DNA from: a virus
DNA length: 64,000 bases
Virus record (IMG/VR): IMGVR_UViG_3300017783_000001
Strand: one strand, 5' to 3'
The notes under the pieces were generated by a model. The model saw only the letters and a list, made by a program, of their open reading frames with translations. It was not told the DNA's origin and ran no database searches. Below, piece after piece: positions 1,947-19,845 of the stretch. The first letter of the stretch is position 1, and every line of letters begins with the position of its first letter. The translations under genes and the position numbers were made by a program.

Positions 1947-3803
1947 TTAATATGCTGAAGTAGTAGTATAACCAACACCGGCATCCGAGCTTCCGCCAAC
2001 AAAGGAATCCTTCTCAACCAAAATTGTTGAATTAGGAATATCTAACTCTAAAATTTGGTCTCTAACAGGAACAATGTCATTTGAAGCAGGTTGCACGGTC
2101 AGTTCTATTACCGTTGAAGCACTCCCTCTTATATTTGAAATTTCTGTAATCTGTAGTGAATTAATTGTAATTTCACCATTCGTGTAATTAATCGTACCTT
2201 GCGTTGAGTTAGTATAAACTCTAGTTGCACCTGATAGATAATATCTTCTTATGTTACCATTACCGTCATCATCTAAAAATTGTTCGTTAGTGATAGAACC
2301 TTGTACTTTAAAACCAGATGATGTAACCACACCACCAGCAGTTGAGTTATGACCAGTATGTGGATTGTAAACAGCGTTTCTAAAGAATACACTATACTTC
2401 AAAGATGAATTTAAAGTAGGTATGAATGATTTTCTTATTTTTAATGTTGTTATGTTAGATAGTATACTATTGTCTGTATCGTCAATTAATTTAACGACTT
2501 TAGAATGTCTAAACATACTATCAAATTTTTGTAGTGTAGATACATTGTAAGTACCTAATGTATTAATAATATCTGCTTTAATTGTATTGGCGTCTTTTGT
2601 TGTTGCTCTTTCATCATACTTTGCAGTTGAATTTATAACTATACTTGTAATTTCAGGATCCACAATAACAGGTGAAACTGAAGCTACATTATATTCTTTT
2701 AATTGTTTTACAATATCTGCTTTAGTTTGTGTTGTTAATGAAGAACCGCTCATAGGTTTGATTGCAATTTTTACAATACCATAAACAGGTGTCTCATCAT
2801 CTTCACCACCCCAAGCACTAACTGATTGTGTATTAGGATAAATTGACATTACTTTTGTTTCGTAATCAGAAGTAGTAACCGCTCTGTCTTGTGCTGTATA
2901 TTGTAAAGGTGCATTGAAACGAATACTCTCTTTTGTTTCAGGTAGTGAACCACCTTGTGCTTCTGATACGGTCGTAACCGTTATGTTAGAGAAACCACCA
3001 ATGTTACCTGCAGGATTAAATAAGTTTGCACCATTTGCTTCTAATTTATTGGTTACAATATAATCCATAATAATAATATTACCGTGTTCTAATTTCTTAC
3101 CAATAATACCGTCACCAAATTTAACTTCAAACTTACCTGTATCTGTTTCTGATAAGAAGTATATTTGACTTTCGTTATTTAAATTTAATAATCCAGAAAC
3201 GCTTGTGTATGTTTCAGAAGTTGTATCTGTTAAACTTTTTTGTACTTTGATTTGTAATGTAGTAGTATCAGCGTCAATACTAGGTATTAAATATTTTTGG
3301 TCTGGGTCTAGTGTGTCAACCGTATATCTAAAGGTTACAGGTGTACCTTCTGAAATTGGTACACTAGAAAATTTGTAAATACCATCAACAGGTGAAGTTG
3401 TTGTATCTGTATTAGTAATAAAGTTATAAGTTGTTCCGTCTACAGAAGAAGTAAATACAGAACCTTTGTTCATAGTTAGTGTTGTACCTTTTGCGTCATT
3501 AACTACAATGTCAATTGAAGCAGTTGGTGCTTTTGCACTAGAAGGTGTGTAACCTAACATCTTTGCTAATGAAACAATGTTTGCTCTAACATCAGCAGAA
3601 TCCAAATACATTTCGTTTGCTAACATATTAGCATTGAAACCTAGATAGTGTGTATTGTAAGCAAGTAAATCTAATAATACAGCAAAACCACTACCTTCAA
3701 AGTTGTAGTCTGAAAATTCAGGTTGTGATTGTAAGAATACTTTTAAATTTGTTTTTATCTGGTCAAAATCCAGTTCCGTAATATCTAGTTTGGTACTTGC
3801 CAT
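1947..3803 (-). CDS. 6: Baseplate wedge subunit gp6
   Basis: ELDFDQIK..LK, LLDLLAYNTHY, FGDG, QDRAVT..DY, AWGGED motifs; follows gp25. Confidence 0.93.
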   Translation of the reverse strand: MASTKLDITELDFDQIKTNLKVFLQSQPEFSDYNFEGSGFAVLLDLLAYNTHYLGFNANMLANEMYLDSADVRANIVSLAKMLGYTPSSAKAPTASIDIVVNDAKGTTLTMNKGSVFTSSVDGTTYNFITNTDTTTSPVDGIYKFSSVPISEGTPVTFRYTVDTLDPDQKYLIPSIDADTTTLQIKVQKSLTDTTSETYTSVSGLLNLNNESQIYFLSETDTGKFEVKFGDGIIGKKLEHGNIIIMDYIVTNKLEANGANLFNPAGNIGGFSNITVTTVSEAQGGSLPETKESIRFNAPLQYTAQDRAVTTSDYETKVMSIYPNTQSVSAWGGEDDETPVYGIVKIAIKPMSGSSLTTQTKADIVKQLKEYNVASVSPVIVDPEITSIVINSTAKYDERATTKDANTIKADIINTLGTYNVSTLQKFDSMFRHSKVVKLIDDTDNSILSNITTLKIRKSFIPTLNSSLKYSVFFRNAVYNPHTGHNSTAGGVVTSSGFKVQGSITNEQFLDDDGNGNIRRYYLSGATRVYTNSTQGTINYTNGEITINSLQITEISNIRGSASTVIELTVQPASNDIVPVRDQILELDIPNSTILVEKDSFVGGSSDAGVGYTTTSAY

Positions 3804-13977: not shown

Positions 13978-14409
13978 ATGGCAACAGCAAGTTATAAAGG
14001 TAGATACAAACCTCAAAACAAAGACAAATATCTAGGTAATCCTGATAAAGTCGTCTATCGTTCTAATTGGGAGAGAAGATTTATGGTTTACTGCGACCGT
14101 AATGAAGGTATCACACATTGGGGTAGTGAAGAGATTGCTATTCGTTATCGTAATCCTGTGACCAAGAAATTACATAATTACTTTCCTGATTTCTTCATAG
14201 TTACCAACAAAGGTAAGTATATAATTGAAATCAAACCTAAGGCCTTCACAAAGAAACCTAAACCTAGAGCTCGTAAGACTAGAGCATATATCAATGAGAG
14301 TTTAGCATATATTAAAAATAGAGCTAAATGGGGTGCCGCTGTTCGTTATTGCGAAATGCAAGGTTGGGAGTTTAAAATATTTACAGAAGACGATTTAGGT
14401 AAATTTTAA
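13978..14409 (+). CDS. 4: Head completion nuclease gp4 (TnsA-like)
   Basis: KY.G.P..VVYRS.WE, WGSEE, YFPDF, IEIKP, FKIFTE. Confidence 0.93.
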   Translation: MATASYKGRYKPQNKDKYLGNPDKVVYRSNWERRFMVYCDRNEGITHWGSEEIAIRYRNPVTKKLHNYFPDFFIVTNKGKYIIEIKPKAFTKKPKPRARKTRAYINESLAYIKNRAKWGAAVRYCEMQGWEFKIFTEDDLGKF

Positions 14410-15962
14410 GTTGTTGCTGTTAGTCTTTCCCATTTAGACGCTGGGTCTGGATTTCTATTACCACTACCTACAAATTGTGATTCTGCATTGTTTGTGGTTA
14501 TAATTTGTTTGTTGTCTTGTGTTATACCAACATTGTTAGATGAGTTTGCTGTATTTGTATCACCTGCTTCTTTTAGTGCTTTTGCATTACCTGTTTGGTC
14601 TGCCTTATCTGTGCCACTAAAGTATTTCTTTTTCTCTTCAGGTATTTCTGCTTTTTGTGCTTCACCTTCTATACTTTTAGGTTCTGTCATTGTTGCCTTA
14701 TCACTTGACAATGCAACTTTTTCCATACCTATATACTTACCAAACTTATCTACGAAACCATTATAGATTCTTTTAAATATGTCTGATATATAATCACCGA
14801 TACTACCAAATGCACTTTTAATACTATCCCATATTCTACTTCCTAGAGTACTTACATAATCAACCATATCAGATATACCTTGTGTAAAGTTATCCCACTT
14901 CTCCATTAATGAATCTTTTAGTCCACCTATATAACCTACAAACGCATTCCATTTCTCCATTAAGTATTCACCAAACTTTCTAAAGACATCTCCTAGATAG
15001 TTATATGCGTCTATGATAGCGTCTTTGATTGCGTGAAATTTAAATATTGCAATTGCAATTACAGCAATCAATGCTAATATACCAAGTGCCCATAACAACA
15101 TAGGTACAACTGAAATCATAAGACTTGCACCAAATAGTTTTAATGATTTGATTGGTGTCTTCATTGCTTTACCGAAGTTCATAAATGAAGTACCCATTCT
15201 TTTTGCCATATCGCCAAGTTCTACAAATGGTCCTGTAATACTATCTTTGATACCCATAAAGGTATCAGATATACCAGCAAACATACCTCGTGGGTCTATC
15301 ATATCACCACCTTGACCACCAAAGTTATCAGAAGTATCGCCACCAAGTGCTTCTCTTTTTGCGTCTAAATCTTCTCGTTCTTTTGTTAGTAGTACTGACT
15401 TCTCTTTGATAAGCGTTTCTTCTTTTTGTCTACTAGTTTCATCTAGTTTGTGTAAATTCTTTGTTTTCTTTAATAGTTCTTGTTCGTTTGATACTATTCT
15501 CTTTTCAGATTGTACAAGTTTTTCTTGTTCCATCTGCAATTGTTTTGTTGATAGTACAACTGCCTTTGCACCATCTTCGGTCATCTTTACTTGTACTGCT
15601 ACACCTTGTTTTCTTAATTCACTTGCTTCTTTTTCTGCAACAACAATCATCTGTTCTCTATTACGCAATGCGTCTTGTAGAGATTTCATATCTTCTGATA
15701 TGTCTGCCTTTTCCATACCTCTTGTCAAGTCTTCAACAGAATAGTTTAATTCACCCATTCTATTAACAAGTTTATTCATCACATCATTTACACTTCTAGG
15801 TGTATCTCTAAATGCGTCAATAGTTTCTGCAACAAGTTTGTTTAATTTAGGCTGAGTTGACTTAACTAGTCCATCAACTGATTGGATAGACTTCTTTGAT
15901 ATTACTTTGAATATGGAAAGTAGTTCGTCTTGTGTAGCGTTTGAAAGTGTAGTGGCAGCCAT
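14406..15962 (-). CDS. Tape measure-like protein (gp29 position)
   Basis: Long coiled coil, hydrophobic segment, then W/F-periodic amphipathic repeats (EKWNAFVGY/EKWDNFTQG); downstream of gp26/51. Confidence 0.7.
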   Translation of the reverse strand: MAATTLSNATQDELLSIFKVISKKSIQSVDGLVKSTQPKLNKLVAETIDAFRDTPRSVNDVMNKLVNRMGELNYSVEDLTRGMEKADISEDMKSLQDALRNREQMIVVAEKEASELRKQGVAVQVKMTEDGAKAVVLSTKQLQMEQEKLVQSEKRIVSNEQELLKKTKNLHKLDETSRQKEETLIKEKSVLLTKEREDLDAKREALGGDTSDNFGGQGGDMIDPRGMFAGISDTFMGIKDSITGPFVELGDMAKRMGTSFMNFGKAMKTPIKSLKLFGASLMISVVPMLLWALGILALIAVIAIAIFKFHAIKDAIIDAYNYLGDVFRKFGEYLMEKWNAFVGYIGGLKDSLMEKWDNFTQGISDMVDYVSTLGSRIWDSIKSAFGSIGDYISDIFKRIYNGFVDKFGKYIGMEKVALSSDKATMTEPKSIEGEAQKAEIPEEKKKYFSGTDKADQTGNAKALKEAGDTNTANSSNNVGITQDNKQIITTNNAESQFVGSGNRNPDPASKWERLTATT

Positions 15963-15972
15963 TTCTTATTTC

Positions 15973-16296
15973 CTATTTCTTATTTTTACTTGAACCAGTA
16001 TATAGACCAAACCAAGCTGCACCAGCACCAACAACGATACTGATTAACCCACTTTGTTCCATAGTAGGTGCCTGTAAGTCCATATACCAAATTACACATT
16101 TGTATAATAAAACAATATAAACGGTCAAAAACAATCTTGGAAATATTCTCCAAGCGTCAACTGCTCTTGCCATATGAATTATCTTTGCATATGGATTAAT
16201 ACCTAGGTCTTTGATTGAAGTATCTACTTCTAAATCAACTTGTATTTTCTGTTTAGGTTCTGCAACCTTAACTTCTTTTTTTATCTCTTCAGCCAT
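15973..16296 (-). CDS. Two-helix membrane protein, holin candidate
   Basis: DAWRIFPRL...EQSGLISIVVGAGAAWFGLY with basic C-terminus. Confidence 0.55.
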   Translation of the reverse strand: MAEEIKKEVKVAEPKQKIQVDLEVDTSIKDLGINPYAKIIHMARAVDAWRIFPRLFLTVYIVLLYKCVIWYMDLQAPTMEQSGLISIVVGAGAAWFGLYTGSSKNKK

Positions 16297-16311
16297 TTTT
16301 AACTCCTACGA

Positions 16312-16767
16312 TTATTCGTAAACTTTTTTTCTAATATATGCTTGTTCGTGTCTGCCTGTAATCTCTAATATCTTCCAAGAGCCGTCTGTTTGTACTTCTA
16401 CTTTTGCGTTAACTTTATCGCAAGTCATATTAAATACACCACCTGATTTGTCTTTTTTCTCTCTATAATCTTTTTCTGCTTGTCTTTTATTCTTCAAGCA
16501 GTCCATTAAATTATCACTTGCTCTGTGGTCAATTAGTTTTCTTTCACCTGTAGCTTCATCTATTTCAAAAATACATACTGCGAATACGACACCTTCTTCA
16601 GGAGTTGATGATGAAGTTTTATGTTCTTCTGTCATCACCGTAATATGTGTATGTTTCTTTTCAATAGGACAAACTTGGTGTCCGTCATCACCACAACCTG
16701 TGCAATCAGCATATGCTGGGGCGTACATCATCAAAAATAAAAATGCTATTGTTAATAGTTTGTTCAT
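16312..16767 (-). CDS. Secreted Cys-containing protein
   Basis: Signal peptide (AYA/D); DCLKNKRQAE...FNMTC. Confidence 0.7.
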   Translation of the reverse strand: MNKLLTIAFLFLMMYAPAYADCTGCGDDGHQVCPIEKKHTHITVMTEEHKTSSSTPEEGVVFAVCIFEIDEATGERKLIDHRASDNLMDCLKNKRQAEKDYREKKDKSGGVFNMTCDKVNAKVEVQTDGSWKILEITGRHEQAYIRKKVYE

Positions 16768-16774
16768 AAATCCT

Positions 16775-17080
16775 TTAGTCTAAAATTTTAAGTAATCTTA
16801 TTCCGTATTTTGCTTGTTTATCTTCTTGTAATAATGCTTTTACTAGTCTACATTCAAATATAACTCTTTCGCCACCTACTTCTCTAGCCGCTACTCTTTT
16901 AGATTTTAAGCATTGACCTATATTTTCTTTGTAAACCCATTCTATTAACTTACCGTTTAGAGTAAGTGTTAACGCAACAACTTTATCTTGTTCGTATTTC
17001 TCACCGCCAGTATATAACTTGGCTGCATACACACTAGGTACAAGTAAGACAACAAATATTATTGCTAAAATGTTTTTCAT
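16775..17080 (-). CDS. Secreted Cys-containing protein, probable paralog of 16312..16767
   Basis: Signal peptide (VYA/A); QCLKSKRVAA...IFEC. Confidence 0.7.
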   Translation of the reverse strand: MKNILAIIFVVLLVPSVYAAKLYTGGEKYEQDKVVALTLTLNGKLIEWVYKENIGQCLKSKRVAAREVGGERVIFECRLVKALLQEDKQAKYGIRLLKILD

Positions 17081-17541
17081 TATTCCTTCTTACCGTTTCC
17101 ATTTTGATAGATAATACTTCTATTACTATCTTTTAATTTTTCTACATCTTCTCTAAGGATTTTTACATCCTCTTGTAGTCTTGTTATATTAACACCATTG
17201 TTCAACATTTTATTCATTCTCTCATCTAGTTCATCTAATTGTCCAGCAATGTGTTCAATAAGCATATATTGTTCGGAATCAGCAGGTGGTGAACCTAATT
17301 CACCTCTTGGCCACTTAATTCTAAACTCACTATTCTTATTTAATTCTGTCTCTATTCGTAATGTACTTCCTTCAAGGTCTTTTCTTAATAACTCTTCGTT
17401 AGTTTCTATACGATTTAATCTTTCTAATACTCCAAAGTATGCCCAAACACCAACTGAAACTGCTGCTATTATAGCTAACAAGTTCCTCATAGGCATACTG
17501 ATAGCAGTATTATCTGATACTCTTAATTCATCTTTGCTCAT
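17080..17541 (-). CDS. Membrane-anchored coiled-coil protein
   Basis: N-terminal TM helix, FRIKWPRG motif, C-terminal heptads. Confidence 0.75.
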   Translation of the reverse strand: MSKDELRVSDNTAISMPMRNLLAIIAAVSVGVWAYFGVLERLNRIETNEELLRKDLEGSTLRIETELNKNSEFRIKWPRGELGSPPADSEQYMLIEHIAGQLDELDERMNKMLNNGVNITRLQEDVKILREDVEKLKDSNRSIIYQNGNGKKE

Positions 17542-17569
17542 AAATCCTTTTGTTATAACTCACCTGCTA

Positions 17570-17716
17570 TTATTTAGTACCAGGTTTGCCCATATTATCT
17601 CTTCTTGCTTTTTCTTTTTCTTCTTTAATGTGTTTAACCAGTAAAGAAACATAAACCTCTTTTTCCCAAGGAAATAGAGAATCCAATTCTGTTAGACTAT
17701 ACTTATGATGTTGCAT
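17570..17716 (-). CDS. 51: gp51-like baseplate hub assembly segment, probably made as a -1 frameshift extension of gp26
   Basis: Not in track. MQHHKYSLTELDSLFPWE; the frame stays open upstream (HNNLEAYFETNFAL) to the slippery site; no SD before ATG 17716. Confidence 0.8.
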   Translation of the reverse strand: MQHHKYSLTELDSLFPWEKEVYVSLLVKHIKEEKEKARRDNMGKPGTK

Positions 17717-17738
17717 TAATGCAAAGTTAGTCTCAAAG

Positions 17739-17779
17739 TACGCCTCTAGGTTGTTGTGGGAGAGGCAGATACGAAAAAA
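17739..17779 (-). promoter_or_regulatory. Programmed -1 ribosomal frameshift signal
   Basis: U_UUU_UUC at 17779-17773, 6-nt spacer, GCCUCU/AGAGGC stem with 13-nt loop. Confidence 0.75.
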
Positions 17780-18480
17780 TCAGATAGTCCTTGGAGTGTA
17801 ACCACACTCTCTTTCTTTGTTTTAGGATTTATAACCTTGACTTCGTGCCTTAACTTCGGCATTGTGTCAAAGAATTTTCTGATTAGTTTAAATTGATTGG
17901 TATTTAAATTATTGAAAAAATCAATTAGTTCAGCCTTTGTACTATCTTTCGCTTTATGCACTTGTTCCCCCTCATAGATGTAGTCAATACATTCAACAAT
18001 TGTTTTAAAAATTGCTTCTGTATTCATATCTTCATCTACGCCCAATGGAATAGTGTCAATGTTAGGATAGTTCATACTAATACCAAGATTTCTTTCTTCG
18101 TCTAATACTATCTTATTTGTGTGTTCGTCATCAACCTGTACCTCAACCTTTGTTAAGTCTACATCAACAGGTATAAGTGTAACCTTATCTTCTGGACAGA
18201 AAACTTTAAAAGACGCAATCTCACCTACTGACTTTGCACGAATATTTAAAAACAAATATTCTATGTCAAATAGTGGTAGTTTGGTTACTTCTAATTTTCC
18301 GAAAGTACAAGAGTTAATTAAATCTCTAACGGCGGCTTTCATTTGAGCGTCATTCTTCTCTTCCATCGCTAGCATTAATATCTTCTCTTCTTTGACCAGA
18401 AATGGTCTAAACTCTACTACCGTGTCTTCACTTGGTAGAGTTAACTTATATGTTGGGACTTCAATTTTTGGTAAAGCCAT
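17746..18480 (-). CDS. 26: Baseplate hub assembly protein gp26
   Basis: MALPKI..P.Y.L.LPS, FRPFLVKEEKILM, FDIEYLFLNIRAKSVGE, FFDTMPKL, GL.DFF. Confidence 0.93.
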   Translation of the reverse strand: MALPKIEVPTYKLTLPSEDTVVEFRPFLVKEEKILMLAMEEKNDAQMKAAVRDLINSCTFGKLEVTKLPLFDIEYLFLNIRAKSVGEIASFKVFCPEDKVTLIPVDVDLTKVEVQVDDEHTNKIVLDEERNLGISMNYPNIDTIPLGVDEDMNTEAIFKTIVECIDYIYEGEQVHKAKDSTKAELIDFFNNLNTNQFKLIRKFFDTMPKLRHEVKVINPKTKKESVVTLQGLSDFFVSASPTTT

Positions 18481-18508
18481 ATTGTTATCATCTCCTTATT
18501 ATTTACTA

Positions 18509-19468
18509 TTATATATTTAGGGGTCCGAATTTAAACGGAGGCATAACTCTTCCACCAGTAATCTTACCGATTGGAAACGACCTCTTCAAGTTATTCAGTA
18601 CACCTTCACCTGCTCTTCTCAATTCAGGTGGTAATTTACTTAAAAATCCACTATCGCCTTCTTTAACGATAGGATTATTAAATTGCGATTGACCAATCTG
18701 AAATTTGTTTTGTTGGTCTATTGCAAAGTTTAACCAGTATCTATATTTAAATTGTACCGTAAATGTCTGTACTTCATTTGAACCGGCAGCATACGATACA
18801 TCACCTACTGAAACTGGATATGCTTCCCACAATCTAACACCATATGTTGCACCGTCTCGTTCTTGTGCTCCTGGGTCAGAACCTAATTGTAATATATTAA
18901 TTGGTGCTACATACTCATCATAGTACGCATAGTTGTGAGTTATATTTGAAAAGGCAGTCTTTTGCCACAATTCAAAAAATATTCTTTCTCTCATATATTT
19001 GTCTGTGTAAAATGTCATTGATACATCAGCCATTTCATAATCATAAACAATGTGTCTTGGTGGACCATTGTGTTTTACTGATTTAGTCTTCATTGTTCTA
19101 GCAGGCATATTCACTTCTGATACAAACGCTTGTACTCTTCTTTGTAAGTTTGCTTCATTAGCGTATCTTCTTATTTCACTACCGTGTACCATACCATCAC
19201 CACCAGGTACTGCACCACCAAAATCAAAACCACCTGCCATCTTACCACCTGTTGGTAGTTCAAAGACAACATAGTATCTAGCCTTACGAGCAAAACCTTC
19301 TGATTCATTTACATAGGATTGAAATCTACCCATTGTAGTTTCAGGATTTGCACCTGCTTTTGCTCTGAACCTTGGGTCTCGGTTGATATTATCCATAGAA
19401 CGGTCTCTAGGAATACCAATTCTGATATCCATACCACCTATTCTTTTACCGCCTCGTAATATTGCCAT
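18509..19468 (-). CDS. Tail-tube initiator/baseplate-tube junction protein (gp54/gp19 fold)
   Basis: VNMPARTM, SMTFYTD, LWEAYPVSVGDVSY...TFTVQFKYRYW; upstream of gp26. Confidence 0.75.
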   Translation of the reverse strand: MAILRGGKRIGGMDIRIGIPRDRSMDNINRDPRFRAKAGANPETTMGRFQSYVNESEGFARKARYYVVFELPTGGKMAGGFDFGGAVPGGDGMVHGSEIRRYANEANLQRRVQAFVSEVNMPARTMKTKSVKHNGPPRHIVYDYEMADVSMTFYTDKYMRERIFFELWQKTAFSNITHNYAYYDEYVAPINILQLGSDPGAQERDGATYGVRLWEAYPVSVGDVSYAAGSNEVQTFTVQFKYRYWLNFAIDQQNKFQIGQSQFNNPIVKEGDSGFLSKLPPELRRAGEGVLNNLKRSFPIGKITGGRVMPPFKFGPLNI

Positions 19469-19845
19469 TAGTTATCCTTACTTTTATAATTTTCTATCGC
19501 TGCCTTTATTGCGTCTTCAGCCAACACACTACAATGTATCTTAACTGGTGGTAACGCAAGTTCTTCAGCAATGTCTGTATTCTTAATCTCTACTGCACTA
19601 TCTAAAGTTCTACCTTTTACCCATTCTGTTAACAATGATGATGAGGCAATTGCACTACCACAACCAAATGTTTTAAAACAAGCGTCTGTAATAGTATTAT
19701 CTTTAACTTCAATCTGCAACTTCATAACATCACCACAAGCAGGTGCCCCTACTAGACCTGTACCAACATTAGGACTATCTTTGTCCATCGTGCCTACATT
19801 ACGAGGGTTTTCGTAATGGTCAATTACTTTATCTGAATAAGCCAT
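19468..19845 (-). CDS. iscU: Fe-S cluster scaffold IscU
   Basis: YSDKVIDHYENPRNVG, GAPACGDVM, FGCGSAIASSS, LPPVKIHCS. Confidence 0.97.
   Translation of the reverse strand: MAYSDKVIDHYENPRNVGTMDKDSPNVGTGLVGAPACGDVMKLQIEVKDNTITDACFKTFGCGSAIASSSLLTEWVKGRTLDSAVEIKNTDIAEELALPPVKIHCSVLAEDAIKAAIENYKSKDN

Follow-up and report, generated by a model that had tools for sequence, protein, structure and literature searches.

Conserved -1 frameshifts are a feature of tail assembly chaperone genes in several long-tailed phages, among them lambda (gpG/gpGT), P2 (E/E+E') and HK97 (gp12/gp13), and this conservation was reportedly described by Xu, Hendrix and Duda in 2004. Here we analyse a gene related to T4 genes 26 and 51 in a 64,000-nucleotide (nt) stretch of DNA from a marine T4-like phage (IMG/VR record IMGVR_UViG_3300017783_000001; the whole stretch is referred to as the window). 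The T4-like phages rank with the most abundant marine viruses, and genes 26 and 51 belong to their core gene set. Leiman et al. 2010 (PMC3004832) list both T4 proteins as hub assembly chaperones, gp51 being required for assembly, yet absent from the particle. The gp51 proteins of cyanophages have only ~20% of the T4 length and are short in marine vibriophages as well, an observation that was left unexplained (Sullivan et al. 2010, PMC3037559). No literature linking gp26/gp51 to a frameshift was found in a search whose coverage did not extend to subscription journals.

The explanation that we regard as probable is that positions 18480-17570 (minus strand) of the window form a single baseplate-hub/tail assembly chaperone gene that is decoded in two ways. 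With greater confidence still, we consider it very likely that a programmed -1 ribosomal frameshift produces a gp26-like and a gp51-like form, as judged from the sequence comparisons described below. That is, most ribosomes would read the zero frame up to the TAG at 17746, thereby making a short form of 244 amino acids (aa), the proposed counterpart of T4 gp26. A fraction of the ribosomes would slip back by one base, with two Phe-tRNAs on U_UUU_UUC, and continue to 17570, thereby making a long form of 303 aa, the proposed counterpart of T4 gp51. Judging by lambda G/GT and P2 E/E+E', the two forms may serve the tape-measure protein and the central hub as non-structural chaperones, and through its extension the long form may gain an additional contact, e.g. 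to a tube or hub protein. A conserved frameshift of this kind would explain the stub gp51 of cyanophages and would correct the annotation in hundreds of genomes.

A candidate frameshift site at the end of a gp26-type gene

The features of the gene and its 3' end are as follows, in the direction of transcription.

18492-18497, minus strand: Shine-Dalgarno (SD) sequence AAGGAG of the gp26 start, 11 nt 5' of the ATG (anti-SD duplex of -9.3 kcal/mol)
17746-18480, minus strand: gp26-type open reading frame (ORF) in the zero frame, from the ATG at 18480 to the stop codon TAG at 17748-17746; short form of 244 aa, with Pfam and PHROG matches
17788-17792, minus strand: internal SD-like AAGGA, a candidate upstream stimulator, 8 nt 5' of the heptamer and overlapping a conserved Gly codon
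17773-17779, minus strand: slippery heptamer U_UUU_UUC, in phase with gp26 (X_XXY_YYZ); a TGA directly 5' of it opens the -1 frame
17738-17772, minus strand: spacer of 6 nt and hairpin; core stem 17766-17761 with 17747-17742 (GCCUCU/AGAGGC), 13-nt loop and optional outer GUAU/GUAC pairs
17570-17773, minus strand: -1 frame extension of 67 codons plus stop, a gp51-like C-terminal domain by its match to phrog_634 and its collinearity with T4 gp51
17714-17716, minus strand: the only canonical start codon (ATG) of the -1 ORF, 20 codons inside the conserved extension and without SD, as judged by anti-SD pairing

In a Pfam profile search, the short form matched PF12322 (T4_baseplate) over its full length (positions 2-218 of 219, E 2e-64), and in a PHROG profile search the 244-aa protein matched phrog_150 ('baseplate hub', E 3e-70). 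By these profile matches, the gene is a member of the PF12322 family, to which T4 gp26 and gp51 belong. At its 3' end the gene reads GAT TTT TTC GTA ... ACC TAG, which places T_TTT_TTC in the X_XXY_YYZ phase, and the stop-to-stop ORF of the -1 frame (17779-17570) opens exactly at the heptamer. The -1 piece matched positions 58-115 of the 121 positions of phrog_634, the 'baseplate hub assembly catalyst' gp51 (E 1e-26), and had no match in the local copy of Pfam. Precomputed domain tables place a newer Pfam family, PF28602, on the C-terminus of T4-type gp51, besides PF12322.

The predicted long form consists of gp26 residues 1-236 and the 67 residues of the extension. Its tryptic junction peptide is predicted to end ...ESVVTLQGLSDFFR, the equivalent peptide of the short form running on into VSASPTTT. 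When the -1 ORF was inspected for ATG, GTG and TTG, a single ATG at 17716 was found, 63 nt 3' of the heptamer, whose best anti-SD pairing amounts to -2.7 kcal/mol as compared to -9.3 kcal/mol for the gp26 start. A preliminary description of the locus had named the in-phase heptamer, the -1 reading to the stop at 17570, a gp51-like sequence beginning before a sole ATG without SD, and products of 244 and 303 aa, and in all these respects it was borne out.

For comparison, 80 related metagenomic loci from IMG/VR with 46-92% protein identity were used, 77 of which are complete across the junction; statistics on codon choice were taken over 70 unique junctions. A T_TTT_TT(C/T) run is present in phase in all 77 complete loci, 7, 10 or 31 nt 5' of the gp26 stop. 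The heptamer and its -1 phase, which had been proposed as features to look for across 26/51 junctions, are kept in seven distant isolate lineages in addition. A variable phase and an SD-led gp51 start upstream of the conserved region had been named in advance as contrary signs; in this lineage the phase is constant and no such start is present. The T run is invariant, whereas the flanking gp26 codons have a median third-position identity of 0.46. All 70 unique junctions have a codon with final T before the run and TTT as the first Phe codon (codon usage would predict ~0.63 per sequence for each), and TTC is the second Phe codon at 64 of them as compared to 18% elsewhere in the gene. The C of this second codon is also the first base of a conserved Arg codon in the -1 frame. 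Binomial tails for these codon choices range from 1e-14 to 1e-40, values that overstate the significance as the sequences are related, but their direction is unambiguous. Judged from these codon choices, site and phase are conserved beyond what the protein sequence demands. As a separate observation, the run comprises 7 or 8 T instead of 6 in loci L010, L020/L021, L026 and L033 (junctions near position 2200), in which small compensating changes just 3' of the run keep the zero-frame tail and the -1 peptide in register.

Two elements probably promote the slip, the AAGGA located 8 nt 5' and the hairpin located 6 nt 3' of the heptamer. Anti-SD pairing of -4 kcal/mol or better at a spacing of 5-8 nt is found at 50-64% of the 70 unique junctions as compared to a background of 3.4%, and the conserved Gly codon at the SD-like site is GGR (GGA or GGG) at 50 of the 70 as compared to 23% elsewhere in the gene. 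The distance from AAGGA to the nearest conceivable start (AUH) in the -1 frame is at least 17 nt, and the motif is therefore too far away to serve initiation of the -1 ORF. An SD spacing of the 8-nt type suits -1 stimulation, as in dnaX.

The GCCUCU/AGAGGC stem-loop, already recognized in the preliminary description, was confirmed and has a folding energy of -8.2 to -9.3 kcal/mol (RNAfold); the gp26 stop codon lies at the border of its loop and 3' arm. When 200 synonymous recodings of the -1 frame were folded, their mean was -3.8 kcal/mol as compared to -9.3 kcal/mol for the native hairpin (z -2.6), and 1% of them reached the native value. Across loci, the mean hairpin z is -2.1 as compared to -0.8 for a control segment. 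The hairpin is significant in 19 of 22 loci of the stop+31 class, and locus L071 and its relatives have an 11-bp stem with z about -5, in which one compensatory double change distinguishes L077 from L071. No Rfam family was detected in 17450-17950 at E up to 1. The further expectation of a conserved covarying stem had to be abandoned: a single such stem was rejected, since clades use hairpins in different registers, and the hairpin is lineage-specific.

The arrangement resembles that of Escherichia coli dnaX, which combines an SD-like element, the heptamer A_AAA_AAG and a hairpin, in that the same three-part layout is seen, with the SD-like element ~8-10 nt 5' and the hairpin ~6 nt 3'. The window differs from dnaX in its heptamer and in a hairpin that is weak (about -9 kcal/mol) and confined to certain lineages. 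Moreover, the dnaX shift shortens the product, whereas the shift proposed here lengthens it.

The same protein products would arise if it were RNA polymerase that slipped on the T6 run and added one U. That the site is a homopolymer would suit such transcriptional slippage, as would the 7 or 8 T of L010, L020, L026 and L033, which indicate a labile run length. However, runs that support efficient polymerase slippage usually comprise 8-9 residues or more, six U being short for this purpose, and the positions of the SD-like motif and of the hairpin relative to the heptamer fit a ribosomal mechanism. Nor would transcriptional slippage call for a strict X_XXY_YYZ phase, but the coding of FF sets the phase anyway. 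On balance, slippage of the polymerase appears very unlikely, and ribosomal frameshifting is the mechanism that we prefer.

The -1 reading frame in related phages

The -1 peptide is kept from its first residue on in the 77 loci, with a consensus like R-I-A/S/G/C-L-S-H-x-S-L-E. From immediately 3' of the slip site, the -1 frame shows coding periodicity, including the 19 codons preceding the commonest ATG, the entropies of codon positions 1/2/3 being 0.70/0.48/1.10 and 0.40/0.34/0.82 in two classes of the 70 unique junctions. The first ATG of the -1 ORF, in turn, varies among loci, its position being +15, +24, +33, +42, +60, +63 or +102 nt. At least nine loci have it at +102, where a start would remove half of the domain. 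Because of this variation, the first ATG cannot account for the conserved -1 peptide.

An in-phase run followed by a gp51-like -1 ORF is likewise found in isolate phages, namely in Pelagibacter phage Mosig and Prochlorococcus phage P-HM1, in Synechococcus phages ACG-2014b and S-CAM1, in Vibrio phage ValKK3 (KVP40-like) and Aeromonas phage AS-sw of the Straboviridae, and in Sinorhizobium phage phiM12, Caulobacter phage Cr30, Pseudomonas phage pf16 and Stenotrophomonas phage YB07. Several records have the gp51 piece annotated from whichever ATG exists, resulting in proteins of 44 aa in Mosig, 53 aa in P-HM1 and 55 aa in ValKK3. In the records of ACG-2014b (L083, positions 1483-1695), S-CAM1 (L084, positions 1483-1692) and AS-sw (L091, positions 3181-3369) the gp51-like -1 ORF is unannotated.

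Annotations of the former kind correspond to an alternative in which gp51 is a separate small protein, comprising 48 aa from the ATG at 17716 or more from a non-canonical start, which is made by independent initiation or re-initiation and never fused to gp26. An ATG that overlaps or lies near the gp26 stop in some lineages would agree with this, and so would the lack of a canonical heptamer in Ackermannviridae and in Vibrio phage K469. In the window, however, the ATG lacks an SD and is preceded by 20 codons of the conserved region, and in the loci with the first ATG at +102 half of the domain would be lost. Furthermore, conservation with a coding period extends to the residues between heptamer and ATG, among them the Arg whose codon starts on the final base of the heptamer; the nearest conceivable AUH codon is 17 nt from the internal SD-like motif; and T4 gp51 shows the domain at work when appended to the C-terminus of a gp26-like domain. 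For these reasons, separate synthesis of gp51 is very unlikely to be the explanation for the window.

The break does fall on a T6 run, a classic site of errors, but a sequencing or assembly error in the homopolymer, or a pseudogene, with one 303-aa ORF as the true gene, can practically be dismissed, homopolymer sequencing error being excluded by the identical 244-aa protein on 52 contigs, by homolog lengths that are nearly all 238-248 aa (120 listed of 8000 scored) and by the lack of any in-frame fusion (~300 aa) among the best 150 representatives of clusters formed at 50% identity, almost all of which end within a few residues of FF, and the same split being present in the 77 of 77 independent loci and in isolate genomes from several sequencing eras.

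Some observations weigh against the programmed frameshift. Klebsiella phage UPM 2146 (Ackermannviridae; L092, positions 3289-3465) and Vibrio phage K469 (L093, positions 3208-3405) keep the -1 ORF without an X_XXY_YYZ heptamer; these phages may use another recoding signal or may have changed to separate initiation. In ValKK3, Cr30, YB07 and the L071 group, an ATG lies 15 nt past the heptamer or overlaps the stop, and a separately initiated small gp51 is possible in some phages. As to the stimulators, the SD-like motif coincides with a conserved Gly codon, the hairpin is insignificant in the largest cyanophage clade, and its base pairs are not conserved as a set, the registers differing between clades. 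Finally, the case for frameshifting consists of sequence evidence, and the long form is a predicted product. With regard to the two phages lacking the heptamer, we also noted that the -1 ORF of UPM 2146 is unannotated and has no obvious start, and that ATGs overlap the gp26 stop in K469.

Relation to T4 genes 26 and 51

In T4, gp26 (208 aa) and gp51 (249 aa) are encoded by neighbouring genes that are divergently transcribed. Both proteins are full-length matches to PF12322 (E 9e-64 and 4e-52, respectively), indicating that they are paralogs, and share 20% identity. T4 gp26 terminates 4 residues beyond the conserved FF. T4 gp51 goes on in frame for ~48 residues (about 203-249), which align to the -1 peptide of the window with Y-S-L and P-x-E motifs in common, and this C-terminal segment also matches phrog_634. 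By this alignment, T4 gp51 corresponds to the predicted fusion, encoded in a single frame and with its two parts meeting at the same place. The T4 equivalents of the slip site are not slippery, reading GAG TTC TTT in gene 26 and GTG TTT AAG in gene 51.

The locus in the window thus shares with T4 gp26/gp51 a short form that matches PF12322 end to end, a predicted long form that is collinear with gp51 including the extension after FF, and genomic surroundings made up of baseplate and tail genes. It differs in that a single gene and a -1 shift would provide both forms, whereas T4 has two paralogous genes and no slippery run. The protein itself differs in the loss of CxxC pairs: in the protein alignment, Cys pairs of the CxxC type are present in T4 gp26, T4 gp51, ValKK3 and YB07, and most of them are gone in the window protein, Mosig and P-HM1. 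Weak zinc-ribbon-like Pfam matches are seen in homologs.

The number of PF12322 genes per genome is two in T4 and one each in Mosig, P-HM1 and ValKK3. In an unrooted tree, T4 gp26 adjoins the gp51 clade, apart from all one-gene forms, a placement for which long-branch attraction has to be considered; a duplication in the T4 lineage would fit this tree, if weakly. The two arrangements may represent a natural experiment, in which the same pair of short and long forms is obtained via recoding or via gene duplication.

Fold, gene neighbourhood and proposed chaperone role

The AlphaFold2 model of the gp26-type protein from the window has a predicted local distance difference test (pLDDT) score of 92.5. 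The best matches of its N-terminal domain are the three solved structures 2ob9, 3klu and 3fgx, all of which have been described as tail assembly chaperones (PMC9603447). According to the model, the N-terminal domain has a chaperone fold of the HK97 gp13 type. Foldseek searches with the gp26 model returned nothing at E 0.001 or better from the PDB, and from BFVD only 'baseplate hub' proteins of large myoviruses, none of them named chaperone; a sequence search of solved structures with the gp26-type protein had no match. With a model of T4-type gp51 (pLDDT 92.5), no chaperone match was obtained for the N-terminal domain, the lists being filled by other parts of the protein (VIA-align wide, pdb_via). 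Here, the C-terminal extension, modelled as three helices packed against the body, gave generic helix-loop-helix matches, and the middle part gave C1QBP-like ones. In the structure comparison that had been suggested beforehand, a likeness to tail assembly chaperones was thus found for the N-terminal domain of the window protein and was not reproduced with the T4-type gp51 model.

The genes surrounding the 26/51 locus comprise the following.

18509-19468, minus strand: upstream neighbour, a gp54-like tube-fold gene (phrog_45 tail tube, E 9e-36; Pfam Phage_TTP_2 below cut-off)
17080-17541, minus strand: small ORF, phrog_20984, with a faint holin-like match
16775-17080, minus strand: small ORF, phrog_24646
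16312-16767, minus strand: small ORF, phrog_24646
15973-16296, minus strand: small ORF, phrog_10198
14406-15962, minus strand: downstream tape-measure-like gene of 518 aa, with weak matches to several tape-measure PHROGs (best E 8e-7)

The Mosig homolog of the tube-fold gene is annotated as baseplate tail tube initiator, and the gene at 14406-15962 occupies the position of the annotated tape measures in Cr30 and phiM12. In BLASTP, the tape-measure-like protein had no significant match to T4 gp29 or ValKK3 ORF318. The proposed order of tube-fold gene, 26, 51, insert and tape measure was found in the window, with a weak label for the tape-measure-like gene, and the order tube-fold gene, 26/51, tape measure or tape-measure-like gene is also seen in ValKK3, AS-sw, phiM12, Cr30 and pf16, in two of which annotators have called the downstream gene tape measure.

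This synteny, the listing of the T4 proteins as chaperones and the fold match of the N-terminal domain strengthen the earlier proposal that gp26 and gp26-51 form a tape-measure chaperone pair. By analogy, we lean slightly towards a lambda G/GT-like role in this sense, and the role itself stays inferred. As in lambda, two products (in silico in the present case) would have a common N-terminal part and differ by a -1 extension, and the gene lies between a tube-fold and a tape-measure-like gene. Also in keeping with G/GT, the T4 counterpart gp51 is required for assembly without being part of the particle, and the N-terminal domain model is closest to the solved chaperones 2ob9, 3klu and 3fgx. Unlike lambda gpG, the window protein is ~2x longer, with extra beta-rich and ex-zinc-ribbon parts; the heptamer is U_UUU_UUC as compared to G_GGA_AAG in lambda; four small ORFs separate the gene from the tape-measure-like gene; and, among the families listed for it, the protein matches PF12322 and no Pfam chaperone family. 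Two points count against the chaperone role. First, the tape-measure assignment of the gene at 14406-15962 rests on weak PHROG matches and on position. Second, no Pfam tail-assembly-chaperone family was found among the 25 most-matched of 146 families (E up to 10) for the window protein and 66 aligned homologs, PF12322 being the only one that matches. A complex prediction for the tape-measure-like protein and gp26 scored 0.00 and gave no verdict.

What T4 gp26 and gp51 do in hub assembly has long been unclear, and these considerations provide a testable hypothesis, namely that the two proteins form a chaperone pair of the G/GT kind that serves the tape measure. Going one step further, gp26 and the gp26-51 fusion could be the version of a universal chaperone pair in the T4 superfamily, with the one-gene frameshift form being ancestral and T4 26/51 representing a G/GT pair 'resolved' by duplication, a scenario to which we would give even chances. 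If it were true, a tape-measure chaperone system with a fixed short-to-long ratio would span essentially all long-tailed phages, and both the 'catalytic' gp51 of T4 and the stub gp51 of marine T4-like phages would be accounted for.

Among the four small ORFs located between 26/51 and the tape-measure-like gene (15973-17541, minus strand), those at 16775-17080 and 16312-16767 are probably paralogs, as both belong to phrog_24646; in relatives, the corresponding interval holds one to three ORFs. Directly upstream of the gp54-like gene and inside the tail block, the window carries a gene for an iron-sulfur scaffold protein of the IscU/NifU_N type (19468-19845, minus strand; PF01592, E 9e-53).

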